Part shown: positions 2,398 through 19,930 of the stretch, one piece after another | How positions within the stretch are numbered: the stretch's first letter is position 1 | How the letters are laid out: the number at the start of each line of letters is the position of its first letter | From: Phycisphaerae bacterium | GTDB taxonomy: Bacteria; Planctomycetota; Phycisphaerae; UBA1845 | Direction: 5' to 3' | NCBI GenBank assembly: GCA_046757145.1 | Contig: JBHHXS010000001.1 | Coordinates: 1 to 35,242, forward strand | DNA length: 35,242 nucleotides | Made by a program: the position numbers and the translations under genes | Notes under the pieces: model-generated | Databases searched by the model: none | Told to the model about the DNA's origin: nothing | The model's input: the letters and a program-made list of their open reading frames with translations, nothing else

Positions 2398-3507
2398 TCA
2401 ACAGTCGGTCGACGGTGCGGACCCGCGCAGGGATATCAGAGTGGTGGAAGTGGGCGAACACTCAAGGCAGGCGATCGAGTCTGTGTCGGACAGTTCGCCC
2501 CCGCCAACGAGCAGACGGCATGGCAAGTCTATCCGGCTCTCCCGCGTCGGATAGAGCCGCCCGTCATGCAGGGAGACGCCCGCAACGGCCAGGTCGAAGG
2601 CCAGACCTAGCGGCATGGAGCCGTAGAGCGGCGAGTAGCACGCAACGGCAGCGCTGGCCAGATCGGCCTTCCGATAGGTCCGCGCGCAGCCGCTGCCCCC
2701 ATGGGCGCATAGGAACACGGCTCGATGCGACGCCAGGTTGCCGGCGTCCAGTTGCGAGGGGCAGTCGACGCAAGTTATTTCTCGAATCCTGCCGTACCTG
2801 CCGCCTGCTGTCGGGTTGCCTAGCAGGAAGACGACGAACCCCTCGCCTGGCGAACAAGGGCGGCGATCGACGCACCGGGCGTCGATCGTCGATGATGGAC
2901 CCGTGCTGAGTCGGTGGATAGCATAACCTAGAACCGGGCAGTACTCGTCACCCATACCCGCGAGCACATAGTCGACCCTTCCTTCCGCCAGCCACAGCTC
3001 AGCCGTACGCAGTACCTCCGCCGTGGTGCGCTCGAACGTGGTGAGCGTGACCGACGGCCCAGTGATCTGCATTAGGATTGAGACCGTGGAGGCCGGCGCG
3101 CCGTGTACTGAGTTAGCGAACAGCGTTGGTGACGCGCCCTGGTCACCCTCGTCGATGATCGTGTCTTGATAATGGAAAGTCGTCTGCAAGGGCCCGTACG
3201 CGGTGCCGAACGCGATCCCGACGCGGCTCTTGTCCTCGAGCGTCAATCCTGAGTTCTCGACCGCGAGGAATGACGAGAGTAAAGCCATTCGCGTGAGGTT
3301 ATCGGTGCGGCGAAGCGCCCGGGACGGGATGAAGCGCTCGAGCCCTTCAAGGGTGGGCTTGTGCACCGCAAGCTTGCATTCAGGGGATACGCTCGGCACA
3401 GAGGCGTGAACGACGTGGGGCGACGTTGAACCGTCAAGAGCCGCCCTGAGTGAGTCGACCCCGCAGCCCGTACTAGAGACCATACCAATCCCCAGTATAC
3501 AGCTCAT
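2398..3507 (-). CDS. ketosynthase-like protein lacking the active-site Cys (chain-length-factor / KS-beta type partner)
   Basis: Thiolase-fold KS-like sequence (ILGIGMVSSTG…, ASPTLFANSVHGAPASTVSILMQITGPSV). The position of the nucleophile reads TLTTFERTTAE instead of ACxSG. Lies 9 nt downstream of the KS at 3517. Confidence 0.8.
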   Translation of the reverse strand: MSCILGIGMVSSTGCGVDSLRAALDGSTSPHVVHASVPSVSPECKLAVHKPTLEGLERFIPSRALRRTDNLTRMALLSSFLAVENSGLTLEDKSRVGIAFGTAYGPLQTTFHYQDTIIDEGDQGASPTLFANSVHGAPASTVSILMQITGPSVTLTTFERTTAEVLRTAELWLAEGRVDYVLAGMGDEYCPVLGYAIHRLSTGPSSTIDARCVDRRPCSPGEGFVVFLLGNPTAGGRYGRIREITCVDCPSQLDAGNLASHRAVFLCAHGGSGCARTYRKADLASAAVACYSPLYGSMPLGLAFDLAVAGVSLHDGRLYPTRESRIDLPCRLLVGGGELSDTDSIACLECSPTSTTLISLRGSAPSTDC

Positions 3508-3516
3508 GCTCCGCGT

Positions 3517-4710
3517 CTACCTCTGAAACACAAGGACTGCGTTGTTGCCGCCGAAAGCCAGCGAAGTCGATATCGCAACATCCGTTCGGATGCTCGTGTT
3601 CTCCCGCGTCGGGCGAATAGCCACGTCGGCATCCTCCTCGTCAAATCCAGGCGTGGCCGGCAGGCGCTCATCATGCAACGCCTGGAGAGTGAGGATAGCC
3701 TCCAATCCCCCCGCGGCGCCGAGCGTATGTCCTGTGTACGCCTTGGTGGCAACGGCTGGGATGGACTCGGTGAAGAGTTGAGCGAGTACTCGCCCCTCCA
3801 CGCGATCGTTGTCCGGAGTAGCGGTTCCATGGGTGTTGACGAAGCCTACGCGGTCGTGGTCAAGTCCAGCCGTGCGCAGGGCATGTTGGATGGCGCGTTT
3901 CAAACCCAGGCCGTTCGGATGGGGTGCGGTCGTATGATACGCGTCTGCGAAGCTGCCATATCCCGCCACCAGCGCCAGCGCGCACACTCCTCTTTTCTTC
4001 GCGACACTGTCCCGCTCCAAAATGACCACTCCGGCCCCCTCCCCGAGATTCAATCCTTGCCTGTTCTTGTCGAAGGGCCTGCACGGGTGCCGCGAGCTGA
4101 TCAAGAGTTGGATAAACCCCAGATAGGGGATACGGGAAAGCTCGTCGCACCCGCCAGCAAGAGCGATGTCACACTGGCCCTGTTCCACCCAAGCCTTTGC
4201 CAGCCCGATCGCGTCCGTTCCGGAGGAGCATGCATTGGCCACCGTGGCTGCGGGGCCGGACAGGCCGAATGTTGCAGCAAGAAACTTGGCCGGATTGCTG
4301 TCGAGATAACGCTGCACCGGATGCACATCCGGCCTCTGGCCACGCCTGAACTGTCGATAAAACGGCTCGTCGTTGAGCGTGCATCCTACTGTCGTGCCCA
4401 TGCACACGCCCACCCGCAGCGAGCGTAGGGTCTTAAGGTCAAGCTTCGCGTGCGACAACGCTTCCTCAGCCGCTATCAGCGAGAGCTGCGCGGTGCGAGA
4501 GGGTTGGGCTTCCGCCCGCGACTTATACAACGCATCCAGCGGTTCGAGCACTTCAAAGACCGGATAGTCGTCTGTCAGATCAGCGGCGATATTCCGGGGC
4601 GGGCCCGGACGGCGCTCACCCGCATAGAGCGAGCGCATAACCCGCCTGACCGAACTCCCCGCGGCGCATATGGCGCCAAGACCTGTTACAACCGCCCTCG
4701 CTGACTTCAC
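3517..4710 (-). CDS. beta-ketoacyl-ACP synthase II-like ketosynthase (KS-D)
   Basis: Cys-His-His motifs VANACSSGTDAIG, VNTHGTATPDND and YTGHTLGAAGGLEA. Start set at GTG 4710, giving the canonical N-terminus MKSARAVVTGLGAI. ATG 4761 is an alternative but overlaps the upstream gene by 26 nt. ORF-track start 4833 is rejected. Confidence 0.9.
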   Translation of the reverse strand: MKSARAVVTGLGAICAAGSSVRRVMRSLYAGERRPGPPRNIAADLTDDYPVFEVLEPLDALYKSRAEAQPSRTAQLSLIAAEEALSHAKLDLKTLRSLRVGVCMGTTVGCTLNDEPFYRQFRRGQRPDVHPVQRYLDSNPAKFLAATFGLSGPAATVANACSSGTDAIGLAKAWVEQGQCDIALAGGCDELSRIPYLGFIQLLISSRHPCRPFDKNRQGLNLGEGAGVVILERDSVAKKRGVCALALVAGYGSFADAYHTTAPHPNGLGLKRAIQHALRTAGLDHDRVGFVNTHGTATPDNDRVEGRVLAQLFTESIPAVATKAYTGHTLGAAGGLEAILTLQALHDERLPATPGFDEEDADVAIRPTRENTSIRTDVAISTSLAFGGNNAVLVFQR

Positions 4711-4735
4711 CGGTCGCCCCAACGCCAACAGGTCG

Positions 4736-5659
4736 TCAGCCTGCCTGCGACTTCTCGCCATCGTCCCAGAAATCGAAGAAATTAAACCACATAAGCGGAT
4801 TCCTCTCCAGGTACTCCTCGAGACATTTGACATAGCGCTGCAGGAGCAGGTCTATGGCTTCCTCGCGGGGCATTGACCGGAAGTCCTGGTCTTGTGTGAT
4901 ACGGACATGCTCGATCCGGTACGCGCACCTTCCGGTACGAACCGTCAGCAGCACGCCGACATCGGCACCGGTGAGCAGGGCCAGGTGATACGGCGTTATG
5001 GGGAAGTCCGCCTCGTCTCCAAGAAAGGGCACACGCCTCGTCCTGCCCCCCCAGGCTCGATCCCCCATGACGGCTGCGCACTCGCCGGCGTTGAGGGCGT
5101 TGGTCATTTCAACCATACCACCAAGGAAGCCGTCAGGTGAGATGATGTTGAAGCGCTTCCGGTTCCCCGCCAAGTCAAAGAAATGCCGCCCGGTCGTGTG
5201 CGGTTCAAGTCGAAGATGGAAGTGCACCGGTACGTTCAGCGCGTCCATGCTTGCCATCGATGTCTGCCACGCCCCTGCATGGGTGGTAAGCAGAACGATG
5301 CCGGAGCGCGCCCGGGCGGACTCGTACAACTGCCCAGCGCCGGGAAACTCCACTTTGAAAGCGTCAGCGCCCAGCACCCCCATCGCTGCCTGGTCTATAA
5401 GAACCTGTCCGAACGCATAGAAATACTTGACCGTCGCGGCCAATCGTTGGACCGGTGACAAGTCCGGGAATCTGTGGCGGAGGTAAGGAGCTGCCGACCG
5501 CCGCGCGCTGGGACGAAACACCACGTAGTACGGGATTATCAGCATGAGCATGACGTAAGCAGGCACAACGCCGAAGCGCTGGATACACCAGTGGAAGATG
5601 GCATGGCCCAGACGATTACCATAGCGGGGCGAGGCGCGCGGTTGGCCCCTCTTACCCAT
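4736..5659 (-). CDS. LpxL/HtrB-superfamily (lipid A biosynthesis-type / lysophospholipid) acyltransferase
   Basis: N-terminal TM helix (VVPAYVMLMLIIPYYVVF), then an LpxL-like core with IVLLTTHAGAWQ at the usual H-x4-(D/E) position (here H-x4-Q). Start overlaps the upstream GT gene by 8 nt. Same architecture as the acyltransferase of aryl-polyene clusters (from memory). Confidence 0.75.
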   Translation of the reverse strand: MGKRGQPRASPRYGNRLGHAIFHWCIQRFGVVPAYVMLMLIIPYYVVFRPSARRSAAPYLRHRFPDLSPVQRLAATVKYFYAFGQVLIDQAAMGVLGADAFKVEFPGAGQLYESARARSGIVLLTTHAGAWQTSMASMDALNVPVHFHLRLEPHTTGRHFFDLAGNRKRFNIISPDGFLGGMVEMTNALNAGECAAVMGDRAWGGRTRRVPFLGDEADFPITPYHLALLTGADVGVLLTVRTGRCAYRIEHVRITQDQDFRSMPREEAIDLLLQRYVKCLEEYLERNPLMWFNFFDFWDDGEKSQAG

Positions 5660-6959
5660 CGGACGTCGTCCCTCGTCCCGAGCGGGCTTTCCTATAGGTC
5701 AACGCGAGCAGATAGACGCATCCGCCCGCACAAAGCGCGAGCACGGGTGCAAGGATAGACGAGCCGATCAGGTAATCGAGCAGCCTCTGGTGAATCTCGC
5801 GGGCTAGCGTCTGCACGCTGAACTCCGTCAGCCAACGCCCGTGGCGCACGAAGAAGCCGAGCTCGATTGCCAGGGCAGGAACGAGAGGCGGGGCGCAGAG
5901 GTGACTGACGTTGAGTGCCAGCAGCCGATTCAACCGCAAGCGAGTCGCGCAGAATATTATGGCTATGCTGTGGCAGGCGATAAGGGGCAGCGTCCCCAGA
6001 AAGATGCCCAGTGCAGCGGCGGCGGCTAGCTGAGACGGAGAGGACCGTTCGCGCAGCAGCGTGTGCAGCGAACGCAGGGGTCGCTGAAATGAGAATCCCT
6101 CGCCTTTCGCGCGCCACTTCTCCCGGTCGGGGTTGATCTGCCACAATCCAGGCCGCATCGTCTCGGGCCAGAGCACCCTGTGGGGCCAGGGTATGAGATT
6201 CCGGACGACCAGCCGTGTATATGTCCGCGCGGTACGTATGTTGTCCCACCACATGTCGAAGTGAGAGTTGCGCACAGCATCGGCGTCGTAGCGCGCGCTT
6301 ATGTCCACCCAGTCCAGGCTGGCGCCTGACCATGCGCTGCGAACCAGGATCTCGACCTCAAAGTCGTACCGGCGTGCCCGACACTTCATGCGGCGGAGAA
6401 TCTCCACCGGGTACGCCCGGAAACCCGACTGAGTGTCCGGGTGACTGACACCGCACGCTATTCTGGTCCAGAAGTTGGAGAATGCGCGCCCGAACCGGCT
6501 TGAGCGCGGCACCTCGGCGCCCGATAGATCCCTTCTGCCAACGATCAACGCTTGCGGGTTAAGCCTGATTCTCTCCAGGAACTTGGGCGTCTCTCCCGGA
6601 TCATGCTGCCCGTCACCGTCAAGCGTTATGAGGTGAGTGAAAGAATGGTCGTACGCCCAGCGGCCGGCGGCGACGATCGCCGCACCCTTGCCTTGATTCT
6701 CGGAGTAATCGATACGCTCGACACCCAGGCCTGCGAGTTCGGCCGGACCACCGTCAGTGCTCCCGTCATTGACCACCAGTACCGGGAGTCCGAGTTGCAG
6801 GGCCCGCTCGGCTACCTGACGCAACGTGCCTTTGTTGTTGAACGTCGGTATTGCGATCAGCACCCTGATGCCGTCAGCATCTTCAGGGCGTAGTCGAGCC
6901 TCCTGCTCACTCCGCTTGTGCGGTATGGTGGTACATGGAGTTCCAAAGCACGCGGTCAT
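5652..6959 (-). CDS. family 2 glycosyltransferase fused to a C-terminal DUF2062 membrane domain
   Basis: GT2 motifs IAIPTFNNKGTL, VVNDGSTDG and LITLDGDGQHDP. C-terminal polytopic DUF2062-like region (AAAALGIFLGTLPLIACHSIAIIF…). Start set at ATG 6959, which forms an ATGA overlap with the upstream rSAM stop (6956-6959). ORF-track start 7043 is rejected. Confidence 0.85.
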   Translation of the reverse strand: MTACFGTPCTTIPHKRSEQEARLRPEDADGIRVLIAIPTFNNKGTLRQVAERALQLGLPVLVVNDGSTDGGPAELAGLGVERIDYSENQGKGAAIVAAGRWAYDHSFTHLITLDGDGQHDPGETPKFLERIRLNPQALIVGRRDLSGAEVPRSSRFGRAFSNFWTRIACGVSHPDTQSGFRAYPVEILRRMKCRARRYDFEVEILVRSAWSGASLDWVDISARYDADAVRNSHFDMWWDNIRTARTYTRLVVRNLIPWPHRVLWPETMRPGLWQINPDREKWRAKGEGFSFQRPLRSLHTLLRERSSPSQLAAAAALGIFLGTLPLIACHSIAIIFCATRLRLNRLLALNVSHLCAPPLVPALAIELGFFVRHGRWLTEFSVQTLAREIHQRLLDYLIGSSILAPVLALCAGGCVYLLALTYRKARSGRGTTSDG

Positions 6960-8395
6960 GTGGCCCGCCTGAACGCTTTTCTTATACTGAGAAAATCCCT
7001 CAGATTCAGCAGGAAGCGAATCCAACTGCTCGGCGAATGCCACACCATCGTCGCATAGCGCAGCAGCACGGAGGGGCGCTTGAAATACCGGCGGTAGAAC
7101 TCCCGGTAACGCTCCTCGAGGCGTTCAAGCGTCAGCCCCACAGGCGCAAAGATAAAATTAAGGCAGTTCATCAATTCCCAGTTCTCGCAGAACTCCCCAT
7201 GGCGCTCCAGGTCGGCGTACACAGGCGACCCGGGGAAAGGAGTGAACTTGGCCAGGTTGAATTCGTCAAGGGGCAGGCTCAGTACGTACTCGATGCTGCG
7301 GTCGATCGTCTCCTCCGTTTCACCGGGTAGGCCGAGCATGAAAAGCCCCTTCGCCCGGATCCCCACATCTTTTATCCACCCGATGCGTTCACGGATCATA
7401 CCAAGGTCGGCCCCTGACCGGTGTCTCGCCAACAAATCGGGATCGCCGGTCTCCACACCCAGGCTCATCATCCAGCATCCTGCCCGCTTCATGAGGCGCA
7501 GCAAGTCACGATCGATATGTTCGGCACGGGCTGCGCAATTGAATGTCATCTTCATCCGGGAACGCAGCAGACTTTCGCAAAACGCGACCACGCGCCGCCG
7601 GTCGAGCGTAAACAAATCGTCGTACAGATTGACATGGCGGATGCCGAACGCCTCGCGCAGGTGACGAAACAGGTTCAGCATGTACTCCGCGGAATTGTAG
7701 CGGAAGGAGCGCCGAAAAACCGAGCGATCGCAGTAGGAGCATCGGTAGGGGCACCCGCGGCTTGTGACCGCTGTCGTACCCGGGGCCGTGGGGTAGTTGA
7801 AAATAGGGAGCGGATAGGCTCTGGGGAATCCATCGAGCTTGCTGTACGCGGGGAACGGCAGGTCGTCCAGATTCAGCGACGACGTGCGCAGACCGGTGAA
7901 CTCCACCTTCTCGCCCTCTCGCCGGAGCAGCCCCGGCACATCTTCGAGACCCTCGCCATTCCGCTCAAGGATCGCCAGGAGCGCCTCTTCTCCCTCGCCC
8001 ACGACACCATAATCGATCACGGGGTACTCGTGGAGGAGGCGCTCGCGCAGGCCGGATATGTGCACCCCGCCGAAGATCGTTCGAACGTGCGGGTAAGCCG
8101 CTTTGATGTTGGCGGCAATGCGTACAGCGTCGAGAAAGCTCGACGTCGTCGTGCTGAAGCCCACGTAGTCGGGACGCTCCGTGCGCAAGTATCGGTTGAT
8201 TCTGCCATCGCGCCCCGGGTGCGCATAGCAATCATGGATGACGGCGCGATGTCCGTGGCGTTCAACCCACGATGCCAAGCTGCACAAACCGATGGGCGGC
8301 ATGATGTTCGCGATGCGCGACATGTCCTTTTCGCCCGGCATCCAGTTGACGCCCAGCGGGTGAATTAGCAGTATGTTTTTCTTCTTCACGATCAC
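6956..8395 (-). CDS. B12-binding domain radical SAM enzyme (rSAM-1)
   Basis: N-terminal Rossmann-like B12-binding region (KNILLIHPLG…PPIGLCSLASWVERHGH). CX3CX2C cluster motif TSRGCPYRCSYCDRS. GTG start overlaps the previous stop (GTGA, 8392-8395). Confidence 0.9.
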   Translation of the reverse strand: MIVKKKNILLIHPLGVNWMPGEKDMSRIANIMPPIGLCSLASWVERHGHRAVIHDCYAHPGRDGRINRYLRTERPDYVGFSTTTSSFLDAVRIAANIKAAYPHVRTIFGGVHISGLRERLLHEYPVIDYGVVGEGEEALLAILERNGEGLEDVPGLLRREGEKVEFTGLRTSSLNLDDLPFPAYSKLDGFPRAYPLPIFNYPTAPGTTAVTSRGCPYRCSYCDRSVFRRSFRYNSAEYMLNLFRHLREAFGIRHVNLYDDLFTLDRRRVVAFCESLLRSRMKMTFNCAARAEHIDRDLLRLMKRAGCWMMSLGVETGDPDLLARHRSGADLGMIRERIGWIKDVGIRAKGLFMLGLPGETEETIDRSIEYVLSLPLDEFNLAKFTPFPGSPVYADLERHGEFCENWELMNCLNFIFAPVGLTLERLEERYREFYRRYFKRPSVLLRYATMVWHSPSSWIRFLLNLRDFLSIRKAFRRAT

Positions 8396-11156: not shown

Positions 11157-11263
11157 TTCGCCGCCTTATCTGCCTTACCGCTTATTGTCCAACTGGGACC
11201 AACGCATCTCCGGGCTTGGGTGTCTCGCGATCTCCCGTCGCTGACACCCCCCTTTGATCACTA

Positions 11264-11277
11264 CCCCTGGCCAGGGG
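11264..11277. repeat. perfect 14-nt palindrome CCCCTGGCCAGGGG in the only sizeable intergenic gap of the cluster
   Basis: Read directly from the sequence. Flanked by C6 (11246-11252) and extended by G-run to 11279. No adjacent U/T tract. Confidence 0.6.
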
Positions 11278-11322
11278 GGAAGGCGCGGGACACGCGCGTA
11301 GTCACTGATGCTGCTCCTGCGA

Positions 11323-13248
11323 TCACTGACGACTGGGCGCCTCACCGAACAGCTCCAGTATTGAAGCGATGCCACGCACGCCGTCCAGTATGACGCTGTC
11401 CCGTGTACATCTGATCCATCTAACCGCACCTGCGGATGCCCGCGGCCTGCTCTCTAGGACGACAAAAACCGCGCCCGGCAGGTCGTCCCCGTCGGCATCT
11501 AGAGCCACCGGCATATCGCCGACCGGGCCGTCGAGCCAACCGGCGATCATGACGGGCGTCAACCGGTCGGCCATTAGGCGCATGGCCGTGCGCAGCGCCG
11601 CAATACCCCTTCCGCCCGCTTCCCCAACGCACAGCGTCGGGCCGGTGAGCTTGAAGCTAAGGGCACATTCCCCCTGCATGATGCAGGGAAGCGTATACGA
11701 GAACAGGTTCGGGCTAGCGAGCGCTCCCCCGTCACAGCGGGCCGTCTCGTAATAAACGCTGTCGGTCACGAGGCACTCTCGCCTGCTCGAGCTGACGACG
11801 CCGCTTGGACATACATCGTTCCCGTCCCGGAGTCGTGCATCGACCAGGGCTAAAGACACCGCACTGCACCCGAGTTTGGTGTACGTATCAAACCGGCCGT
11901 AGCGATTCGGGCGACGCTCGAATATTTCGTCAGGAGGCGGAATCTCAGCACGTCCGGGACCGAGGACCGGAACGGTTCGGTCGCGCAGGCGGCCGTAGCT
12001 GTTCGCGGCGATCCATCCTCCGCCGGTGACAGCGACCTGGAAGTCCTCTTGCCGTACGTCGACGCAGATACGCGAGCGCTTGTGCGCGCGACGATGAGGC
12101 TCGTGCCCTTCGTGGGGCGAGTCCTCCAGCCCGGCTTCGAACACCAGGGCCGCGTTCACTCCACCGAATCCGGAGTTCACGGTAACGATGTTGTCGCCCG
12201 CGAAGGCCTGCGGAGTACCTGCAGCCCTTCCAACGGCGAGCGGCTCCGGTGTCGCCAGCCCCGACGTTGCGGGCACGGTCCGGTTGGCGAGCGCCTTAAG
12301 GCAGATAGCAGCTTCGATGCCACCTGCTGCGCCCAGTGTATGCCCGATCGCCCCTTTGACCGAGAACACCGGGAGAACACGCCCGCCAAAGACCGACTCA
12401 ATAGCGCGCAGTTCCATCGCGTCGTTGTATGCTGTGCCGGTGCCGTGTGCGCACAACGCTTCGACCCCGTCTTGTGACAGGCCGGCACGCAACAGTGCCA
12501 TCCGAATCGCCGTAGCAAGCCCGGTGCCGTCGCGCGATGGGCCCGTGATATGGTTGGCGTCATTGGCTATGCCCCATCCGGTCAACCTGGCCAGCGGCGA
12601 GTAACCGTGCTTCGCAACTACTTCAGCGCTTGCAAGCAGTATTACCACCGCCCCGTCGCCCAGGCTTAGACCGTCCCGTTTTACGTCGAACGGCCGGCAG
12701 GTCGTCGGCGACAGGGCCCCAAGGGCAGCGAACCCGGCGAAAGTGAAATGACTTACCGTGTCGGCTGCGCATACTAAAACCGCCGGGTGCTCTCCCCGAG
12801 CGATCATCTGAGCAGCGACGGCAAGACCCACCGTCGACGACGCACAGGCTGCGTTCACCTCCATCCCCCGGTCTTCTATGCCCAGCTTGGTGCAAACCCA
12901 CCTGCGGTGCTGGCATGGAAGATAGATGTCGGGTACTTCACCTGCCGCGGCTAGGGCCTCGACGTATTCGGCATTGCCCTTCACACCCGCCCAGATGACG
13001 AAGGTCTCGGTAGGCACCGGACGTAGCTGGTCAAGCGCGGTGCCCATCAAAGCGCAAACCCGATTGGGCTCCGTTCCCCGATTCAGGCTGCTGATGCACG
13101 CCGCGCTGTGACACCCAAACGCTTCGGTGCTGAACCCGCGCACTGGGTCTATGGCGCTATGCCCCTCGATGATCCGAGGCCATAGCTCGTCCAGTGAAGC
13201 GCCCAGGGCGCAGACAATTGCGCCGTCGGCAACGTATACCGCACTCAT
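11323..13248 (-). CDS. ketosynthase fused to a C-terminal truncated Cys-less KS-like (CLF-type) domain (KS-C/CLF fusion)
   Basis: N-terminal ~390 aa carry the full triad (NAACASSTVGLAV, LCAHGTGTAYND, KGAIGHTLGAAGGIEA). The C-terminal ~240 aa resemble the N-half of a KS (ASPNLFSYTLPCIMQGECALSFKLTGP) without the nucleophile motif. Start set at ATG 13248, in an ATGA overlap with the dehydratase stop. Confidence 0.85.
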   Translation of the reverse strand: MSAVYVADGAIVCALGASLDELWPRIIEGHSAIDPVRGFSTEAFGCHSAACISSLNRGTEPNRVCALMGTALDQLRPVPTETFVIWAGVKGNAEYVEALAAAGEVPDIYLPCQHRRWVCTKLGIEDRGMEVNAACASSTVGLAVAAQMIARGEHPAVLVCAADTVSHFTFAGFAALGALSPTTCRPFDVKRDGLSLGDGAVVILLASAEVVAKHGYSPLARLTGWGIANDANHITGPSRDGTGLATAIRMALLRAGLSQDGVEALCAHGTGTAYNDAMELRAIESVFGGRVLPVFSVKGAIGHTLGAAGGIEAAICLKALANRTVPATSGLATPEPLAVGRAAGTPQAFAGDNIVTVNSGFGGVNAALVFEAGLEDSPHEGHEPHRRAHKRSRICVDVRQEDFQVAVTGGGWIAANSYGRLRDRTVPVLGPGRAEIPPPDEIFERRPNRYGRFDTYTKLGCSAVSLALVDARLRDGNDVCPSGVVSSSRRECLVTDSVYYETARCDGGALASPNLFSYTLPCIMQGECALSFKLTGPTLCVGEAGGRGIAALRTAMRLMADRLTPVMIAGWLDGPVGDMPVALDADGDDLPGAVFVVLESRPRASAGAVRWIRCTRDSVILDGVRGIASILELFGEAPSRQ

Positions 13249-14297
13249 GCCGACTTCATCCATTCAGCGTCATCGCGCGCGTTTGATCCCCGGCCATCGC
13301 GCACGTCGAACCGTAGTGTTGCGATGTTCCCCCCTTGACTCGTCACGGATGCGCGCACCGACCGGGTGGCACCGTCGGGCGCCAAGCCGACCTCCACTAG
13401 CACGGGTTGTCTGGGAAGCACGCGACCGGTGAACTTCGCCTTCTCCACACAGGCGAGCTCCAACGCCTCCTCGACGACACCTTCCGCCAGCACGAGTGCC
13501 GTCTTCAGCAGGATGACTCCTGGCAGGATCGGGCCGGAGGGGAAATGGCCGTCGAACCCGGGAAACGCCTTGCGAAAGCTGAACTCCGCGGCAACTTGCC
13601 CCCGGGCACCGCACGGATGGATCCGTGTGCCGCTGTCGAGCACGGCCCGATGCATCCGGCTTGCTCGATCCGCGAACCGCAGCCAACGGTCAAGCGCCCC
13701 CGGACTGTGCGCACTCTGCGCTGGGTGTTTCTGAATTGCGGGCGATGTCGTGGACGCGACGGGCGGTGCCGGCAGACCGGGCTCCTCCCATACCTTCAGA
13801 ACACCGTATGCCAGCAACGTGGCACCATTGAGTACACGCGCCTCCATTATCGCCGTCTGCTCCAACACAAAGGTCTGGCGGACCTCTATCGCCAGTGAAT
13901 CATCGGCGCGTGCCGTCGCAGTCAGGTTGAGTTCCTTTATTCCCACGAGGTAGCCTGATGTGGGCCGTCCACCCGCCCGCGAAGCCTCGTATCCCCGCAG
14001 CGCAGCCGCACCCTGGGCCAGCATCTCGATCAATGCGACGCCCTCGAGCGTGCCTTGTGCATCAAGAAAGGGATTGTCGGGCGAGACTGTTGTTCGACAG
14101 CGGGCAACGCCCTCGCCGCACTCCGTCAACTCGTCCAGCATCAGCATGGCACCGCGATGCAGTAACACCCGCTCAGCCGATATGGGTGTACGGACCTCAT
14201 GGTGCACTTCGCCTACACGGTCCGCGGACCTTGGCGGCGCCGACTGCCGGCGTCCAGCCCGGTTGCTGTAGTTCTCCTTGCCGGGTGACTCACTCAC
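13245..14297 (-). CDS. double-hotdog FabZ/FabA-like 3-hydroxyacyl thioester dehydratase
   Basis: Two hotdog halves. N-half: LLHRGAMLMLDEL…GVALIEMLAQGAA. C-half: FPGFDGHFPSGPILPGVILLKTALVLAEG. GTG start overlaps the upstream stop by 8 nt; the start is uncertain. Confidence 0.8.
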   Translation of the reverse strand: MSESPGKENYSNRAGRRQSAPPRSADRVGEVHHEVRTPISAERVLLHRGAMLMLDELTECGEGVARCRTTVSPDNPFLDAQGTLEGVALIEMLAQGAAALRGYEASRAGGRPTSGYLVGIKELNLTATARADDSLAIEVRQTFVLEQTAIMEARVLNGATLLAYGVLKVWEEPGLPAPPVASTTSPAIQKHPAQSAHSPGALDRWLRFADRASRMHRAVLDSGTRIHPCGARGQVAAEFSFRKAFPGFDGHFPSGPILPGVILLKTALVLAEGVVEEALELACVEKAKFTGRVLPRQPVLVEVGLAPDGATRSVRASVTSQGGNIATLRFDVRDGRGSNARDDAEWMKSA

Positions 14298-15198
14298 CCA
14301 AGTACTCCCTCAAGACTCCCTCGACGTGCCGCCGCAGCTTCAACGCGCGGTTGCGGTCCGGGAACGAGCACGGGTCCACTGCTGGAAAAAACTCCATGGT
14401 AACGTAGGCGGGCTTGAACTCATGCGACCCGGGGGCGCACAAACGCTCCGTGCCCCTGATACAAACCGGGACGATCGGCAGGTTGCACGCTACCGCTAGC
14501 CTGAACGCACCTGACTGAAAGCGCTGCAGACACCCATCGCGTGAACGGTGCCCCTCCGCGAAACACAAAAAGGAAACACCGCGGCGCGACAACGCCACGA
14601 CCATCTCTGCCGCCTCATCGAATGAGACCCGCTCGATATCGATGTATCCCGCTCGACGCATGAACCACCCGAAGATGGGCAGGTCGAAAGGCCACGAACG
14701 CACCAGAACGGCTACGTTGGGAAGCGTCGCCAATCCGAAGAAGAAGATGTCGAACAGCGATCTGTGGTTCGTGACCATCATCACCGATCCCGTGGCTGGA
14801 ACCCGCGCCCCTTTCACAGCGGCGGAGCGCACGAAGCCATCGGCCGAACCAAGGCGATAGGCACCTCCACCTCTGCCGCATCTTAGCAGATTAGCCAACC
14901 CACGGCGCCGCAACCTTACGAAAGGCCAGAAGAACCTGACCATGAACGCCCCGTAGTACCCGTTGTGCATCCGCCATGCATCATCCCGGTCTCCGAGGTT
15001 CAGCAGCACATGGAACCCCAGGAATACAAGAAAGCACGTCTCAAACACGGCTGACAACATCGCGGCATAGAGGATGCAGACAGCGTTGACGCACCATGAC
15101 ACAGCGTGCTCCGCCGGCCCGTCAGCCCGCCCCCGCCTGCAAGGTGCGTCAGCCTTTTTCCGGTGTCTGCTGCTTACCTGCTCATAGCAAGCGCGCAT
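14290..15198 (-). CDS. PlsC-family (1-acyl-sn-glycerol-3-phosphate-type) acyltransferase with N-terminal TM segments
   Basis: Acyltransferase motifs NHRSLFD (H-x4-D), FAEGHRSRDG and PIVPVCIRG. Hydrophobic N-terminus (VCILYAAMLSAVFETCFLVFLGF). The start lies 1 nt after the upstream KS stop. Confidence 0.85.
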   Translation of the reverse strand: MRACYEQVSSRHRKKADAPCRRGRADGPAEHAVSWCVNAVCILYAAMLSAVFETCFLVFLGFHVLLNLGDRDDAWRMHNGYYGAFMVRFFWPFVRLRRRGLANLLRCGRGGGAYRLGSADGFVRSAAVKGARVPATGSVMMVTNHRSLFDIFFFGLATLPNVAVLVRSWPFDLPIFGWFMRRAGYIDIERVSFDEAAEMVVALSRRGVSFLCFAEGHRSRDGCLQRFQSGAFRLAVACNLPIVPVCIRGTERLCAPGSHEFKPAYVTMEFFPAVDPCSFPDRNRALKLRRHVEGVLREYLGE

Positions 15199-15199
15199 G

Positions 15200-16438
15200 T
15201 TAACGCGTCCGCACGACGAGCACCGCGTTCACACCGCCGAATGCGAAGTTGTTCTTGACGAACCTGCGGACGCTTCCACGTCGCCTCGTCATAACGTGAG
15301 CCAAATCCTCACACCCCTCTCCGGGAATCTCGAGGTTCAACGTGGGAATCACGTACCCGTCTTCCTGCATACACAGACAAGCTATCAGCTCGAGCGCCCC
15401 GCTGGCACCAAGGGTGTGCCCTAGATGACCCTTGAAGCTGCTGACCGGAACGCCGCGCTCCCCGAATACGAGTTTGAGTGCTGCTGCCTCCTCGCGGTCT
15501 CCTTGAAGAGTGCCGGTTGCATGGGCGTTCACGTAGTCGATGGCGTCTGCAGGCACTCCGGCGTCATCCAACGCCTGCCTCAAGCACTCAACGATAGAGT
15601 CGCGGTGCGGCTGCGCTATGTGGCTTCCATCGCTCGTCGTGGCGTAGCCGATCACCTCACCCAGAATCTCCGCTCCACGCTCCGAAGCGCTCCGTTCACT
15701 CTCAAGGACAAGTGCGCCCGCACCCTCCCCGCACACGATGCCGTCTCTATCCCGGTCAAACGGGCGCGGTGTGCGCGTCGGCTGATCGTTGAAACGCGAG
15801 GACGCCGCGTGCACCAGATCGAAGCAAGCCGTTACCATAACGTGCAGTTCGTCAGCGCCGCCGCACAGCATGATTTCCTGGTAGCCGCCTTTGATCGCCT
15901 CGACCGCGCAACCGATAGCCTGCAGCGAGGATGCGCACGCACACGCGGGCGAGTGCACCCGGCCTGGTAGGTTCAGAGCGTGTGCGAGGTTGGCCGCACA
16001 CGTATGGCTCATGAACCTGAAGAAGGTGTTGGCAGGAAGACCTTCAATCCTGCCCTTCTCGAAGCATGCCGCAAAGAACTCCTCCAGGCTGCTTGTGCTC
16101 CCCATCGTCGACGCGAAGCTCACGCCCATCCGTCTCGAGCGACAATCCGCAGGGGGGATGTGGGCACGCGCCAAGGCCTCGAGGCACGCGACGTAGGCAA
16201 GCTGGGCGACACGGCCCATCGAGCGGCGCACCGTCCGGGGAATCGACTCGGAATCGAGTGACTCGCGCAGCGGGGCCGCAACCCAGCTCGTTAGATCGCT
16301 CAGGCTGGCCTGCCACTCGTCCTTTCTGTTGACGACGGCTGAGCAACCGCTGTTCAATGAGGCCATGAGACGCTTCACCCCTATTCCAAAAGGAGAAATG
16401 GCTCCCACGCCGGTGATGACGACTTTGTTCAGCGGCAT
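15200..16438 (-). CDS. beta-ketoacyl-ACP synthase II-like ketosynthase (KS-B)
   Basis: Start set at ATG 16438 (MPLNKVVITGVGAISPFG). Triad motifs SPACACASSLQAIG, VNAHATGTLQGD and KGHLGHTLGASGALE. ORF-track start 16684 lies inside the upstream gene. Confidence 0.9.
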   Translation of the reverse strand: MPLNKVVITGVGAISPFGIGVKRLMASLNSGCSAVVNRKDEWQASLSDLTSWVAAPLRESLDSESIPRTVRRSMGRVAQLAYVACLEALARAHIPPADCRSRRMGVSFASTMGSTSSLEEFFAACFEKGRIEGLPANTFFRFMSHTCAANLAHALNLPGRVHSPACACASSLQAIGCAVEAIKGGYQEIMLCGGADELHVMVTACFDLVHAASSRFNDQPTRTPRPFDRDRDGIVCGEGAGALVLESERSASERGAEILGEVIGYATTSDGSHIAQPHRDSIVECLRQALDDAGVPADAIDYVNAHATGTLQGDREEAAALKLVFGERGVPVSSFKGHLGHTLGASGALELIACLCMQEDGYVIPTLNLEIPGEGCEDLAHVMTRRRGSVRRFVKNNFAFGGVNAVLVVRTR

Positions 16439-17949
16439 TTTTGAAGCCCCTCCCAGACAGTCTCCGCTCCGAGTATCTCGCTGACAGCCAGAAGACCTGA
16501 GATTAGCACTCCCAGCAGTCCCGGCGCCAAGACGCTCTGCCCGGCCAGGTACAGGCCGCTGAGAGGAGTCCGCGCCATCAACCCTGCTTGTGCAACGCTC
16601 TGCTTCATGCCATAGGCCGACCCGCCCACAGTACCGGTGTAGGACTCGTATGTGCAGGGTGTCGCTGAGTCCAGCACGCGGCATTTGCCACGGAGCTCGG
16701 GAAAGCGAAGGTAAAATGCCTCGACGGTCTTTTCGGTCGCCCGATGCTTCATGTACTCATAGGTCTTGTCGCGAGCCCACGCACCGCCGACGTGGTTGGT
16801 GGGCACTCCAGCGTCCGCGGCGCCGCAGCCGCCTCGCATGGACTTACCAACGCCGGAGCCCGCGCTCTGCACCGAGATGACGGCAAGACTCTTGGGTTCG
16901 AGTCCATTGCCGCCGTCACCGCACGCCGGAACCACGTAGATAGCTCGCGCTCCGGCGGGCTCGCATGGGGCGTCGATGAAGTAACGGTTGCTGCGCCCGA
17001 GCTCTTTGGGAGTGTCGTCAAGACCTAGATAGACGGTGAACAGACCCGGCGTGTTCTCCTGCCAACGCACGCGAGTCATAAACGATTTGCGAATCGACTG
17101 GGCCGGGAGCAGTTCCGCCAACCGGTGAGGATGCACGGTACAGACGCAGGCCTCGCACCGCAATTGGCCACCACCATCCAGTTGCACACCGCAAACACGA
17201 CGATGTCGATCGACGACAAGTCGAGAAGCCCGTTGTCCGCTGTAGATCGCGGCGCCGGCTTCATTGATCCGACGCTTAAAGGCATCCACAACCTCGTCAC
17301 CGCCTCGCGCAAATGTGTGTGCGGAGAAGAAGAATGAGCCGAGCACCATCGCGTGAACCATCATCGGACATTCGTCGCCGTGCATGCCGTACAGGCAGAA
17401 CCCATACTCGCTGAGCATGTCCTGGAGCGCTTCTTCCGCGCCATATGTTGCCAGCGACGTAGCCAAGCTCTCCGTCGGTGTGTGCATGTGCGAGCGGAGT
17501 AGGCTGGCGGGATGGTCGAACCCCAGGAACGGCGTCTCCCGGTGCACGGCTTGCACAGCATCCAGATAGGCTTTGATCGCCCGCTCACTACGCGGGTAAT
17601 GGCGAATCAGCGTTTCTTGCACGCGGAGCGGCCCGACGGGAAACCGTATGGGCTCCGCATCACCCACCTGGACGATGTCGTAGGCGTCCCGGTCCAATGG
17701 CAAGGGTTCAACGAGGGTATCAAGGGCAAGATAGCGGAAGATCACCGCGAGCGGGCCGGACGGGGACAGCCCACCTACATAGTGCAAACCCGGGTCGCAC
17801 CACCATCCGTCGCGACAGAAGCGGCGCAGGAGCGGGGCCAGCTCGTCATCCTGTTCCACGAGAGCTACACGCTGACCGTGCCGTGCAAGTGCCAACGCCG
17901 TGCACATGCCGCTGGCTCCGGACCCTATTACCACCGTGTCATACGTCAT
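16429..17949 (-). CDS. NAD(P)/FAD-dependent oxidoreductase of the phytoene desaturase (CrtI/CrtD-like) family
   Basis: Start set at ATG 17949 (ATGA overlap with the KS-A stop). Dinucleotide fold YDTVVIGSGASGMCTALALARHGQRVALVEQ. The ~500 aa length and the C-terminal GLYLAGQSVLAPGLLG are typical of CrtI-type flavoenzymes. Confidence 0.8.
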   Translation of the reverse strand: MTYDTVVIGSGASGMCTALALARHGQRVALVEQDDELAPLLRRFCRDGWWCDPGLHYVGGLSPSGPLAVIFRYLALDTLVEPLPLDRDAYDIVQVGDAEPIRFPVGPLRVQETLIRHYPRSERAIKAYLDAVQAVHRETPFLGFDHPASLLRSHMHTPTESLATSLATYGAEEALQDMLSEYGFCLYGMHGDECPMMVHAMVLGSFFFSAHTFARGGDEVVDAFKRRINEAGAAIYSGQRASRLVVDRHRRVCGVQLDGGGQLRCEACVCTVHPHRLAELLPAQSIRKSFMTRVRWQENTPGLFTVYLGLDDTPKELGRSNRYFIDAPCEPAGARAIYVVPACGDGGNGLEPKSLAVISVQSAGSGVGKSMRGGCGAADAGVPTNHVGGAWARDKTYEYMKHRATEKTVEAFYLRFPELRGKCRVLDSATPCTYESYTGTVGGSAYGMKQSVAQAGLMARTPLSGLYLAGQSVLAPGLLGVLISGLLAVSEILGAETVWEGLQKCR

Positions 17950-19178
17950 AGTTCGTTGCCCGCCGAGTCCATGCGAATGAGGATGCAGGAGTTCGTACCG
18001 CCGAACCCCGCCGAGTTGCAAAGTGTGTGACGCGGCGCACGGTCGATCGTCTCCGCTGCGATACGGACCTTAGCCGCCTCGTCCTCCTGGCGTGTGAAGT
18101 TGATGTTGGGCGCTATGAACCGCGCTTGCCCCATTATTGCCGTATACACGACCTGCGCCGCCCCGGCCATCCACATCTCGTGTCCGGTCATCGACTTGAC
18201 CGACGAGACCCACGGTCCCGGCCTGCCGAACACCGAGGCGATCGCCCGCGCCTCCGCGGCGTCGCCGAGCGGTGTGGACGTCCCGTGCGCACAAACGTAG
18301 TCGACGTCGTCCGCCCTGACACCTCCACGCCCGAGGCAATCCTCCATGCAACGCCGCAGCCCTTCCCCGGTGGGAACGGCTAAGTCACGCCCGTCGGCGG
18401 AGAAGCTGTAGCTAAGCACATGCCCGAGTACCACGACTCCGCGTGCGCGGGCCGAGTCCGCACGCTCCAGCGCCACAACGGCAGCGCCACCGCTGGGAAC
18501 CAACCCATCACGCGCCGCGTCAAAGGGGCGCGAAGCCTCCTCGGGAGACTCCTCACGCACCGAGAAGGCGTTCGTCGCATCGAAACTGGCAACTGACTCC
18601 CAGTTGATCTCCTGTACTCCGCCACAGAGCATGCGGTCCTGACGCCCGCAGGCGATCAAGTCGGCAGCCTGTCCCACCGCATGCCCGCCGCTGGCGCACG
18701 CGCCGCTAACAGTCCAGCAGGCGCCCAGATTACCCAGGATCGCGTTTAGGTTCATAGTCACCGTGGAATTCAGTGATTGAAATACCTGACTGGCACCAAG
18801 CGAGAAGGTGCTCTGCTCCTGTTTGACGGTCTCTATTTGCCTGGCGTTAGCTGCGGTACTGGTGTCGTTGCCGAGTATAAGACCGGTCGCCGGGCTTCGC
18901 ACATCTCCATCGCTCCACCCCGCCATTTCGATCGCCTGGAGCGCTGCTCCATAGGCCTGTAGGCCGAAGTCGGTAGTAGTCCGTCGCAGCTTGCGGTCCA
19001 AAGGCGGCGGAGTGAAATCACTGATGCAGCCGGTAAGTACCCCCCGGAATCCGAGCTCCTTGCGTTTGGCATCGACGCGCACTCCGGATCGCCCCAAGCG
19101 CAGCGACTCCGTCACTTTGCGCACGCCTGTCCCCAAGCACGAGACGATGCCTATCCCGGTGATAGCTACCTCGTGCAT
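17946..19178 (-). CDS. beta-ketoacyl-ACP synthase I/II-like ketosynthase (KS-A), first gene of the cluster
   Basis: Start set at ATG 19178 (MHEVAITGIGIVSCLGTG). Triad motifs VSGACASGGHAVG, VCAHGTSTPLGD and MTGHEMWMAGAAQ. ORF-track start 19301 adds a junk-like 41-aa extension. Confidence 0.9.
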   Translation of the reverse strand: MHEVAITGIGIVSCLGTGVRKVTESLRLGRSGVRVDAKRKELGFRGVLTGCISDFTPPPLDRKLRRTTTDFGLQAYGAALQAIEMAGWSDGDVRSPATGLILGNDTSTAANARQIETVKQEQSTFSLGASQVFQSLNSTVTMNLNAILGNLGACWTVSGACASGGHAVGQAADLIACGRQDRMLCGGVQEINWESVASFDATNAFSVREESPEEASRPFDAARDGLVPSGGAAVVALERADSARARGVVVLGHVLSYSFSADGRDLAVPTGEGLRRCMEDCLGRGGVRADDVDYVCAHGTSTPLGDAAEARAIASVFGRPGPWVSSVKSMTGHEMWMAGAAQVVYTAIMGQARFIAPNINFTRQEDEAAKVRIAAETIDRAPRHTLCNSAGFGGTNSCILIRMDSAGNEL

Positions 19179-19321
19179 GAACCAGCCCCTGCCCACGCCT
19201 TCGAGCGTACGACGCGGCTTACTGAAGCTCAGGGTTAAGTCGTAAGGGGTGCGGCACGGACGTTCGATCCGGGTGTTTTGCCTCCGCAACTCTCGGCCCA
19301 CGAGCGCTGGCGAGCGAGTCG

Positions 19322-19930
19322 CTAGAAATCGTCCTCATCGAACGGAGGGCGGATGGTACGACCGTTGTCATCAAAGTGGACGTACTTGGTCCTGAACCGA
19401 TTGTCCCAGTATAGCCACTGGTTGGCATCAAGTGACGGAGTGCGGTGTTCAGGTGGATATCCCCTGCACGTCAAGACCGCCTTCTTGCCCATGCCGACGA
19501 TCAGCTTCCCCTTCTTAATCGCGTCAATCTCCTTCTCAGAAAACCCCTTCGTGAGCTCCTCGAAGGATTCATTGGTCACCATACGTCGCATGAACTCCTC
19601 AGGGGTCAGGCCGGGGTGGAACTTCTTCCGGAAATGTATTACGTACCGACCTTGTCCTTGGGACGTGGTGAACGATATAAGCGGCTTGCCACGCCTGCTG
19701 CCGAGTTCTATGGACGCCAGCTCCGTCCCAGCTGGGATCATGACGCCGCGTCTGTAGTTGACGCACGAGATGTTCTCCGGCTTCTCATACCATAGATTGT
19801 AGGCTGTGTAGATCTTAGCTCCGCCTGCGGGCTTAGCCTGTGCCTCCGGCTGTGATTGTTCCTGCCCGGGGGATCGAGCCGACGACATCAAGACAACCAA
19901 CAGCAACGTGGTAGGTATACGGCTTACCAT
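19322..19930 (-). CDS. secreted protein of unknown function (signal peptide; C-terminal BamE/SmpA-OmlA-like segment, tentative)
   Basis: ATG 19930 is preceded by GGAGGG 8 nt upstream. Signal-like MVSRIPTTLLLVVLMSSARSPG. C-terminal GKLIVGMGKKAVLTCRGYPPEHRTPSLDANQWLYW resembles BamE-type folds. Visibly lower GC than its neighbours. Confidence 0.7.
   Translation of the reverse strand: MVSRIPTTLLLVVLMSSARSPGQEQSQPEAQAKPAGGAKIYTAYNLWYEKPENISCVNYRRGVMIPAGTELASIELGSRRGKPLISFTTSQGQGRYVIHFRKKFHPGLTPEEFMRRMVTNESFEELTKGFSEKEIDAIKKGKLIVGMGKKAVLTCRGYPPEHRTPSLDANQWLYWDNRFRTKYVHFDDNGRTIRPPFDEDDF

Follow-up and report, generated by a model that had tools for sequence, protein, structure and literature searches.

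What does a planctomycete make with a run of genes in which the building blocks of aryl polyene (APE) clusters stand side by side with radical S-adenosylmethionine (SAM) enzymes? The question is raised by the window analyzed here, the complete 35,242-bp contig (~62% G+C) of a metagenome-assembled genome (MAG) from a Phycisphaerae bacterium, that is, a non-anammox planctomycete. A preliminary description, made from the sequence, had singled out 13 same-strand genes in it as an orphan type II fatty acid synthase/polyketide synthase (PKS)-like lipid cluster that merges APE-type genes with a desaturase and three B12-binding radical SAM enzymes. Our analysis reveals that the locus is one real operon of 13-14 genes and a further, compact member of a widespread, already flagged but uncharacterized "ladderane-type" family. 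As for its product, we consider it probable, at roughly 60%, that this is an APE-like type II PKS/lipid cluster supplemented with cobalamin-type radical SAM enzymes, which would produce a polyene-type membrane lipid by an APE-like route. Minus-strand open reading frames (ORFs) run unbroken from 2398 to 19301; we labeled them g1 (2398-3507) to g13 (17946-19178) and added an upstream ORF, g0. From the upstream end, the features are as follows.

19322-19975, minus strand: g0, conserved secreted protein, a 217-aa ORF (202 aa as called by NCBI) directly upstream of g13, beyond the coordinates of the preliminary description
17946-19178, minus strand: g13, FabB/ApeR-like ketosynthase (KS) with intact triad (Pfam ketoacyl-synt and Ketoacyl-synt_C)
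16429-17949, minus strand: g12, CrtI/CrtD-like enzyme of the FAD amine-oxidase family (Pfam Amino_oxidase, 56 bits; GxGxxG motif)
15200-16438, minus strand: g11, ApeR-type KS, assigned by homology to ApeR, with Cys-His-His intact
14290-15198, minus strand: g10, PlsC/LPLAT-type acyltransferase with an N-terminal membrane segment (Pfam Acyltransferase, 79 bits)
13245-14297, minus strand: g9, double-hotdog dehydratase in which an ApeP-like N-half is fused to an ApeI-like C-half (BLAST and PDB matches)
11323-13248, minus strand: g8, fusion of an ApeO-like KS (residues 1-385, g8N) and a Cys-less, half-size chain-length factor (CLF)-like domain (residues 386-641, g8C)
11157-11322, minus strand: 166-nt intergenic gap between g8 and g7, the only large gap in the run
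9846-11156, minus strand: g7, B12-domain/radical SAM protein with a CxxxCxxC motif (CRFNCFPC; Pfam B12-binding 34 bits, Radical_SAM 20 bits)
8392-9846, minus strand: g6, "lipid biosynthesis B12-binding/radical SAM protein" of family TIGR04072 (531 bits, cutoff 360)
6956-8395, minus strand: g5, third B12-binding radical SAM enzyme, BchE/HpnJ/ApyD-like (Pfam B12-binding 78 bits, Radical_SAM 85 bits)
5652-6959, minus strand: g4, GT2 glycosyltransferase with a DUF2062 membrane domain (Pfam Glycos_transf_2 and DUF2062)
4736-5659, minus strand: g3, LpxL/PatA-type acyltransferase (Pfam Lip_A_acyltrans, 32 bits)
3517-4710, minus strand: g2, ApeO-type KS with Cys-His-His intact; the start is probably GTG 4710, the ORF reaching 4833
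2398-3507, minus strand: g1, Cys-less CLF-like partner of g2, with Glu at the Cys position and both His lost

The gene content bears out what had been read from the sequence. All 13 genes claimed are present, and a scan with Pfam and NCBIfam hidden Markov models (HMMs), a check that the preliminary description had itself proposed, matched the domains it had assigned, with KS domains found in g1, g2, g8, g11, and g13 (in g1, Pfam detected the KS N-terminal domain alone). Alignment with Escherichia coli FabF, which served only as a ruler for active-site positions, confirmed four KS with an intact Cys-His-His triad (g2, g8N, g11, and g13) and two CLF-like domains without the Cys, g1 having Glu and g8C Gly in its place. 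The CxxxCxxC motif, read from the translations, is present in all three radical SAM enzymes (g5, g6, and g7).

Which known system do these genes resemble most closely? As a reference we used the ape cluster of E. coli CFT073 (L081:28728-43749), comparing proteins by BLAST and taking the roles of ape genes from PMC8253772. The APE-type vocabulary previously recognized in the locus proved to be genuine homology to ApeR, ApeO, ApeP, ApeI, and both halves of ApeJ. Among the KS, g11 is 41% identical to ApeR (E = 5e-96) and g13 31% (E = 1.5e-53), while g2 is 34% (E = 2e-58) and g8N 36% (E = 1e-34) identical to ApeO. The best NCBIfam model of g11 is the ApeR family NF006587 (382 bits, under the cutoff of 470; E. 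coli ApeR scores 779) and that of g2 is the ApeO family NF006618 (300 bits, under the cutoff of 407; E. coli ApeO scores 556). The fused dehydratase g9 aligns with ApeP over residues 47-158 (30% identity, E = 5e-11) and with ApeI over residues 247-303 (26% identity, E = 1.6e-5), the halves being in the right order, and its top PDB matches, 6qsr_B and 6qsr_A, are Xenorhabdus ApeP and ApeI; its Pfam scores, 20.9 bits for ApeP-like and 21.3 bits for ApeI-like, lie under the gathering cutoffs of 27 and 28.5. FabZ-type dehydratases use a His/Glu dyad, and in the alignment the N-half of g9 retains the Glu-bearing helix and the C-half the GHFP His motif, which points to one composite His/Glu active site. 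ApeJ corresponds to two window proteins, since its glycosyltransferase half (residues 9-230) is matched by g4 (35% identity, E = 5e-34) and its acyltransferase half (residues 280-549) by g3 (24% identity, E = 7e-13); moreover, the PpgS polyprenyl-phospho-GalNAc synthase model is matched by both g4 and ApeJ. Finally, g10, which displays HX4D (NHRSLFD) and EGHR motifs, matches TIGR00530 (71 bits), as does E. coli ApeD, and is thus probably the functional counterpart of the latter.

When the window is set beside the ape clusters of E. coli CFT073 and Xenorhabdus doucetiae, the shared set, as judged by homology at scores that all lie below the curated Ape family cutoffs, would consist of ApeO- and ApeR-type KS, Cys-less CLF partners, an ApeP/ApeI-type dehydratase, a GT2 glycosyltransferase with an LpxL-type acyltransferase (ApeJ), and a PlsC-type acyltransferase (ApeD). 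The arrangement differs in that ApeJ is split into g4 and g3 in the window, with a DUF2062 domain in g4, and ApeP and ApeI are fused. Beyond the ape cluster, the window has the three B12-type radical SAM enzymes, the CrtI-like flavoenzyme, a second KS:CLF pair, and g0, whereas it lacks the ApeB methyltransferase, ApeH, ApeG, and ApeN, as well as, from the core set of Grammbitter et al. 2020, the dedicated acyl carrier proteins (ACPs; ApeE/F), ketoreductase (KR; ApeQ), and RND/MMPL transporter (ApeM). The window's relatives share with the ape cluster homologues of ApeE/F, K, L, M, and Q and an interleaved dehydratase-LolA-MMPL arrangement. Discrete KS with a catalytically dead partner likewise act on ACP-bound chains in the ishigamide (Iga11/Iga12) and cispentacin (AmcF/AmcG) systems, and g2 and g8N match AmcF (211-231 bits) and Iga11 (6kxd, 121-150 bits), with g1 weakly matching AmcG. 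However, the likeness to Iga11 and AmcF is no higher than to ordinary FabF, and there are no tailoring or lipid-loading genes in common.

How might such a set of enzymes work together? APE lipids have a glycerol-phosphate-N-acetylgalactosamine backbone on which two separately made polyene chains are placed by ApeD and ApeJ (bioRxiv 10.1101/2020.12.19.423268; PMC8253772). ApeD puts a conjugated C26:5 acyl chain at sn-2, and ApeJ attaches first the sugar and afterwards the chain with the aryl polyene (bioRxiv 10.1101/2020.12.19.423268). The homology to this machinery supports the product that had been proposed for this locus devoid of aryl-starter genes, probably a modified polyene or long-chain acyl lipid on a membrane glycolipid, and from it we infer the following chemical steps and lipid anchor. 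Two KS:CLF pairs, g2:g1 and the fused g8, together with g11 and g13, would elongate ACP-bound chains with malonyl units, the KR and ACP being supplied from elsewhere in the genome. The dehydratase g9 would leave conjugated double bonds, giving one or two polyene acyl chains. The ApeD-like g10 would esterify one chain onto a lysoglycerophospholipid, g4, as the glycosyltransferase half of ApeJ, would add a sugar or sugar-phosphate head group, and g3, as its acyltransferase half, would esterify the second chain to the sugar added by g4. Tailoring missing from canonical APE clusters would be carried out by g6, g5, g7, and g12.

What these four enzymes might add is suggested by their own relatives. 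Besides belonging to TIGR04072, g6 is 100% identical to an NCBI "Phycisphaerae bacterium" MAG protein that already bears the name of that family. After TIGR04072, the families that score best are BzaD and TsrM, and the top PDB match of g6 is TsrM (6wte, 97 bits). BzaD and TsrM are cobalamin-dependent methylases of aromatic sp2 carbons. Since these are the nearest characterized relatives of g6 and since the family lacks an ApeB methyltransferase, our best guess is that g6 C-methylates an sp2 carbon of the head group or the polyene. For g5, the NCBIfam models ApyD, BchE, and HpnJ score ~160-180 bits, each below cutoff, and the top PDB match is AprD4 (90 bits). The third enzyme, g7, only just passes the thresholds of Pfam and is covered by no NCBIfam or other curated family; it is, however, the most conserved protein of the cluster, with 59-78% identity across phyla. 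Only two full-length representatives of it are present when a library is clustered at 50% identity, after which identity falls to 40% or less. As for g12, the NCBIfam CrtD model gives 87 bits, far under its cutoff, and E is 1e-4 against CrtI; among Kuenenia proteins, kuste3336 shares 22% identity with g12 (E = 1.5e-17) and kuste3607 shares 20%. Judged from these relationships, g12 could act as a desaturase, an isomerase, or a saturase on its putative lipid substrate.

Do the chain-building enzymes and the radical SAM block form a single unit? The junctions within the locus are as tight as had been described. We confirmed in the sequence the ATGA overlaps at 17946-17949, 13245-13248, and 6956-6959, the GTGA at 8392-8395, the TAATG at 9844-9848, and overlaps of 10, 8, and 8 nt at 16429, 14290, and 5652, respectively. 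The remaining junctions measure 1 nt (g11/g10), 9 nt (g2/g1), and ~25 nt (g3/g2, if g2 starts at GTG 4710), and the sole large gap is, as stated before, the 166 nt at 11157-11322. This gap has no Rfam match and no promoter or terminator signal above the background of shuffled sequences, and its fold is no more stable than that of shuffles (z = 0.34). Most relatives lack the gap, with their CLF gene running up to or into g7, and it is thus a local feature rather than an operon boundary. A regulatory RNA or internal promoter in the gap is ruled out by the Rfam, signal, and fold tests together with this non-conservation. The gap also holds short G/C-rich inverted repeats, CCCCCCTGGCCAGGGG and GGGGGGTGTC...GAGACACCC.

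Further evidence comes from gene order. A profile scan of 185,579 species-representative genomes detected g6 homologues in at least 600 species genomes, with 599 of those listed confirmed by tblastn. Among the matches listed, carriers belong in the majority to Desulfobacterota, and also to Phycisphaerae, other Planctomycetota, Nitrospirota, Calditrichota, Cloacimonadota, Sumerlaeota, Omnitrophota, Verrucomicrobiota/Kiritimatiellia/Lentisphaerae, Hydrogenedentota, Elusimicrobiota, Spirochaetales, Holophagaceae, and some Alphaproteobacteria. We assigned each ORF of the 80 best loci (L001-L080) to the best-matching window protein. The order g12-g11-g10-g9-g8N-g8C-g7-g6-(g5)-g4-g3-g2-g1 is repeated across more than 10 phyla, being recovered in loci of Nitrospirota, Calditrichota, Cloacimonadota, Alphaproteobacteria, Desulfobacterota, Lentisphaerota, Verrucomicrobiota, Omnitrophota, and Hydrogenedentota. 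That dozens of genomes across more than 10 phyla share one gene order implies functional linkage far beyond chance. Consequently, the uniqueness implied by the word "orphan" does not hold: the architecture is old and conserved in at least 600 species genomes and was not assembled in this locus.

Forty-six of these loci are complete, in that they have at least eight core genes. Within them, g6 is found 46 times, g7 43, g3 42, g9 and g4 41 each, g2 39, g1 38, g8N 36, and g8C 35, and g5 is optional (24 of 46); counts for g10-g13 are lower bounds, the loci spanning 10 kb upstream of g6. The partnership of g1 and g2 is almost invariant, as 38 of 39 complete relatives have g1 next to their homologue of g2, and g13 occurs in a subset of relatives only, always upstream of g12. 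For g8, 34 of 39 loci encode the KS and the CLF in two neighboring genes, whereas the window and seven other loci have the fusion; the halves of g9 are separate genes flanking LolA-MMPL-LolA in 25 relatives and fused in the window and seven close relatives. Three loci, from Maridesulfovibrio and Desulfomicrobium (L027, L045, and L048), keep g6, a SPASM radical SAM gene, and the rest of the cluster and have neither g7 nor the g8 KS-CLF pair, so g7 and g8 may form a functional sub-module that can be lost jointly.

What do the relatives have that the window does not? Across the 80 fetched loci, the accessory families are ACP (45 loci, often in two copies), a LolA-like protein (35), an MMPL-type transporter of ~800 aa (33), a 4HBT thioesterase (28), a PaaK-like AMP-ligase (20), an aromatic ammonia-lyase (12), a SPASM radical SAM enzyme (12), and FabG (8). 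Several of these are recognizable Ape counterparts: the relatives' ACPs are 47-49% identical to ApeE/F, the thioesterase 33% to ApeK, and FabG 47% to ApeQ, the MMPL protein is 21% identical to ApeM (E = 4e-15), and the LolA-like protein weakly matches ApeL. In the 35-kb window, tblastn and HMMs built from the relatives, applied in six frames, found no member of any of these families, the LolA-like protein, MMPL transporter, SPASM radical SAM enzyme, PaaK-like ligase, and FabG included. The absence of aryl-starter genes noted previously is confirmed, as neither an adenylating enzyme nor an ammonia-lyase was found in the window with Pfam/NCBIfam or with the relatives' HMMs; the nearest relative, too, has neither ammonia-lyase nor PaaK-like ligase. 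The window is thus a stripped, compact core of the family, with fused KS-CLF and dehydratase-dehydratase genes. In the 12 relatives with an ammonia-lyase (L006, L007, L008, L020, L055, L066, L080, and others), a PaaK-like ligase is usually adjacent, which suggests that these members use an aryl starter of the cinnamate or coumarate type. In 10 related loci, L036 and L021 among them, a SPASM radical SAM enzyme like Kuenenia kuste3343 and an ApeP-like hotdog dehydratase share one stop-free frame, which suggests a natural radical SAM-dehydratase fusion protein.

Several observations weigh against a polyene lipid made by an APE-like route. The same searches of the 35-kb window found no ACP, KR, thioesterase, CoA ligase, or exporter, so the proposed pathway depends on genes outside it, and dedicated KR genes are rare in the wider family as well (7 of 46 complete loci). 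An ACP gene lies between g11 and g10 in the closest relative, a Phycisphaerales locus (L001); an ACP hidden in another frame at this position of the window was considered and rejected, there being no ACP HMM match in six frames even at E <= 10. On the side of homology, g2, g11, and g9 fall below the curated cutoffs of the ApeO, ApeR, ApeP-like, and ApeI-like models, g10 gives no BLAST match to ApeD, and g1 and g8C give none to ApeC at E <= 0.01. Finally, the putative methylase role of g6 is taken from its nearest characterized relatives only, and the literature searched describes no product for any member of the family that bears radical SAM enzymes.

What else could the locus make? An anaerobic pathway to polyunsaturated fatty acids (PUFAs) or hydrocarbons, of the kind envisaged by Rattray et al. 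in 2009, in which a type II fatty acid synthase-like system builds the chain and the CrtI-like enzyme and radical SAM enzymes desaturate it without O2, is unlikely. Desulfotalea psychrophila, which has a syntenic cluster, contains unusual polyunsaturated hydrocarbons and no ladderanes (PMC2649909), the membership of g12 in the CrtI flavoenzyme family fits, and so does the fact that most carriers appear to belong to anaerobic lineages, as judged from their taxon names. However, the chain-building and loading enzymes, with their KS:CLF pairs, ApeP/ApeI-type dehydratase, and split ApeJ, are homologous to APE machinery, which omits enoyl reduction and yields conjugated polyenes esterified to a lipid anchor, and neither the window nor the accessory families that recur in relatives were seen to include hydrocarbon-forming (Ole-type) or decarboxylating genes. 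Moreover, kuste3336 and kuste3607 had no phytoene desaturase activity, and Kuenenia genes expressed in E. coli led to no new fatty acids, although most of the proteins were insoluble (PMC4790861).

The missing functions could alternatively mean that the locus is a decaying, non-functional remnant that has lost its ACP, thioesterase, ligase, and exporter and makes no product. Six accessory functions common in relatives are indeed missing across the 35-kb contig, including the ACP gene placed between g11 and g10 even in the closest relative. Yet the 13 ORFs are intact and full length, with their catalytic residues and translational coupling kept; the KS-CLF and dehydratase-dehydratase fusions look like streamlining and recur in other lineages; and what is missing could be provided by the housekeeping AcpP and FabG or be encoded on other contigs of the MAG. 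In E. coli, apeF mutants are partly complemented by housekeeping functions (PMC8253772), which also counts against decay. Overall, we regard a remnant as quite unlikely.

Could the locus instead make a ladderane-type (cyclobutane) or otherwise radical-cyclized lipid outside anammox bacteria, with the radical SAM enzymes forming C-C bonds in the polyene? For this comparison we used the Kuenenia sequences of Javidpour et al. (Table S6, PMC4790861), in which kuste3343 is complete and most other proteins are represented by approximately their first 400 residues. The ladderane-logic vocabulary that had been pointed out, that is, FabF-like KS, a phytoene-desaturase homologue, and B12-binding radical SAM enzymes, is real, and two of its elements speak for a link with ladderanes. 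First, g6 and kuste3342 belong to one equivalog family, TIGR04072, on which kuste3342 scores 402 bits although truncated; with 31% identity between them (E = 6e-74), and 35-40% between kuste3342 and the g6 proteins of Desulfobacterota, g6 is a family-level orthologue of kuste3342. Second, g7 is the best homologue of the radical SAM enzymes kuste3608 (29% identity, E = 3e-46) and kuste2803 (28% identity, E = 5e-37) of "Cluster I". This cluster (KustE3603-3608) is the leading candidate for ladderane synthesis (PMC10139942; bioRxiv 10.64898/2026.05.19.726425) and is reported to be exclusive to anammox bacteria (PMC10139942). However, kuste3608 and kuste2803 are uniformly 27-31% identical to every g7 member and thus represent a sister family rather than orthologues. 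Overall identity to Kuenenia proteins is low (31% for g6, 29% for g7, 20-22% for g12), with kuste3336 and kuste3607 being 20-29% identical to g12-type proteins in general, and amxACP and single-domain amxFabZ are absent from the window. Since D. psychrophila carries a syntenic cluster and no ladderanes were found in it (PMC2649909), and since ladderanes are described as unique to anammox bacteria while the family is spread over at least 600 species genomes, we consider a ladderane-type product very unlikely.

The two Kuenenia loci concerned relate differently to the window. Cluster I, as found in Kuenenia, Brocadia, and Scalindua, has in common with it a KS and a Cys-less CLF-like partner, which in anammox bacteria have been shown to pair as a heterodimer, a dehydratase, a PDH-like flavoenzyme, and a B12-domain radical SAM enzyme. 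PDB entry 9s5h may be the amxFabF pair, although the names given by its depositors do not state this. The window, by contrast, has no ACP of the amxACP type and no single-domain FabZ, its g7 falls in a separate, tightly conserved family, and its host is a Phycisphaerae MAG rather than a member of the Brocadiia. The low, uniform identity of ~29% and the lack of amxACP and amxFabZ rule out that the window is an orthologue of Cluster I. The locus kuste3335-3352 comes closer. It shares with the window a TIGR04072 enzyme (kuste3342/g6), several FabF paralogues with a non-canonical one among them, a dehydratase, a flavoenzyme resembling phytoene desaturases, and a glycosyltransferase, whereas the window lacks its ACPs, FabG, SPASM radical SAM enzyme, ligase, and SAM methyltransferases, identity being 20-31%. 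Counterparts of kuste3343 (SPASM radical SAM, ~50% identical) and kuste3344 (PaaK-like ligase) do exist in the window's relatives, and the ligase, SPASM radical SAM, ACP, and FabG of this locus are frequent but not universal in the wider family. Syntenic loci have been reported in Kuenenia, Desulfotalea, Geobacter, and Pelobacter (Rattray et al. 2009, PMC2649909), and it is to this synteny group, not to Cluster I, that the window belongs by sequence comparison.

That adjacent unrelated pathways, for example a lipid cluster and radical SAM enzymes for cofactors or RiPPs (peptides made on the ribosome and modified after translation), have been mistaken for one is hardly credible and effectively refuted by conserved synteny, for although the 166-nt gap splits the run and the second-best matches of g5 and g6 are cofactor or RiPP enzymes, the radical SAM genes lie between the KS-CLF and glycosyltransferase/acyltransferase genes in the same order in dozens of genomes of more than 10 phyla, most relatives lack the gap, and start/stop codon overlaps occur on both sides of the radical SAM block.

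How much of this was known? The family was noticed in 2009 (Rattray et al., PMC2649909), has its own NCBIfam model (TIGR04072, "rSAM_ladder_B12"), and has been reported as "ladderane" biosynthetic gene clusters in Desulfobacterota, Verrucomicrobiota, Omnitrophota, Planctomycetota, and other phyla, always with an unknown product (PMC9902471, PMC7298704). In the literature searched, we found no papers on TIGR04072 or its name, and combinations of aryl polyene with radical SAM, or of ladderane with aryl polyene and Kuenenia, led to genome-mining surveys only and no characterization. The preliminary description had held that its reading would fail if the gene set were already linked to a characterized product or if the genes belonged to unrelated pathways; no such product appears in the literature searched, and synteny makes the genes one unit. 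We did not meet there the equation of "ladderane-type" clusters with the APE lipid pathway either. What our comparison adds, on the basis of sequence, is that these clusters are APE lipid pathway homologues with a radical SAM/CrtI-like tailoring block.

This framing predicts a conjugated-polyene lipid on a glycerophospho-sugar anchor, with 14-Da shifts in radical SAM mutants, and it points to cultivable carriers such as Maridesulfovibrio, Geobacter, and Desulfotalea; locus L027 is that of Maridesulfovibrio sp. FT414 (NZ_CP104854.1, ~569-591 kb). The compact 13-14-gene core of the window could suit heterologous reconstitution as a minimal set, with an ACP and a KR needed in addition. Should the radical SAM enzymes catalyze reactions beyond methylation, the family could be relevant to the unsolved question of how ladderanes are made. 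In its boldest form, which we judge improbable, this idea would have the family making new radical-tailored (methyl-branched or carbocyclized) polyene glycolipids in largely anaerobic bacteria and being the evolutionary source of anammox ladderane genes (kuste3342, and kuste3608/2803 via g7). If true, the chemistry of g6 and g7 would reveal the missing C-C bond-forming logic of ladderane synthesis.

Upstream of g13, g0 lies beside the cluster in 11 of 46 loci, in several phyla and at either end (L001, L020, L036, L038, L042, L047, L052, L056, L069, and L070 are among the g0-adjacent loci). Since it travels with the cluster across phyla, we count it as the 14th member. Its N terminus is a hydrophobic signal-like segment (signal peptide), no Pfam or NCBIfam family matches it, and its 89 homologues are all "hypothetical", two of them with a BamE/SmpA_OmlA Pfam mark. 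The AlphaFold (AF2) model of g0 has a pLDDT of 86 and a pTM of 0.78 and finds no fold match in the PDB (best Foldseek E = 0.49). A LolA-like carrier that substitutes for ApeL was considered and rejected, as the relatives' LolA HMM gives a non-significant E = 1.7 and the model has no PDB neighbor.

The other flanking genes are unrelated to the cluster and include an NTP_transf_5 protein, a class V aminotransferase, RibBA, and a PgsA-like transferase. An 898-aa signaling protein at 29724-32420 (minus strand), with two receiver-domain matches and GGDEF, GAF, and HD (HD-GYP-like) domains, is encoded 10 kb from the cluster, and nothing was seen that ties the two together. At 1288-2382 (plus strand), a pseudopilin-like protein combines a prepilin-type N-terminal segment (weak GspG match, E = 9e-4) with an H-X9-DG motif, a combination typical of Planctomycetota. 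Two large secreted proteins with dockerin/cohesin-like repeats, one of 935 aa and very Cys-rich, are encoded at 510-1604 and 20804-23611 (both plus strand); like the pseudopilin-like protein, they fit no curated family. Lastly, a tRNA-Sec with anticodon TCA is located at 23813-23907 (plus strand), on which Rfam (67 bits, gathering cutoff 47) and ARAGORN agree; a 119-aa ORF that overlaps it (23626-23985) is probably spurious, and the presence of this tRNA in the contig implies selenoprotein synthesis in this Phycisphaerae MAG.

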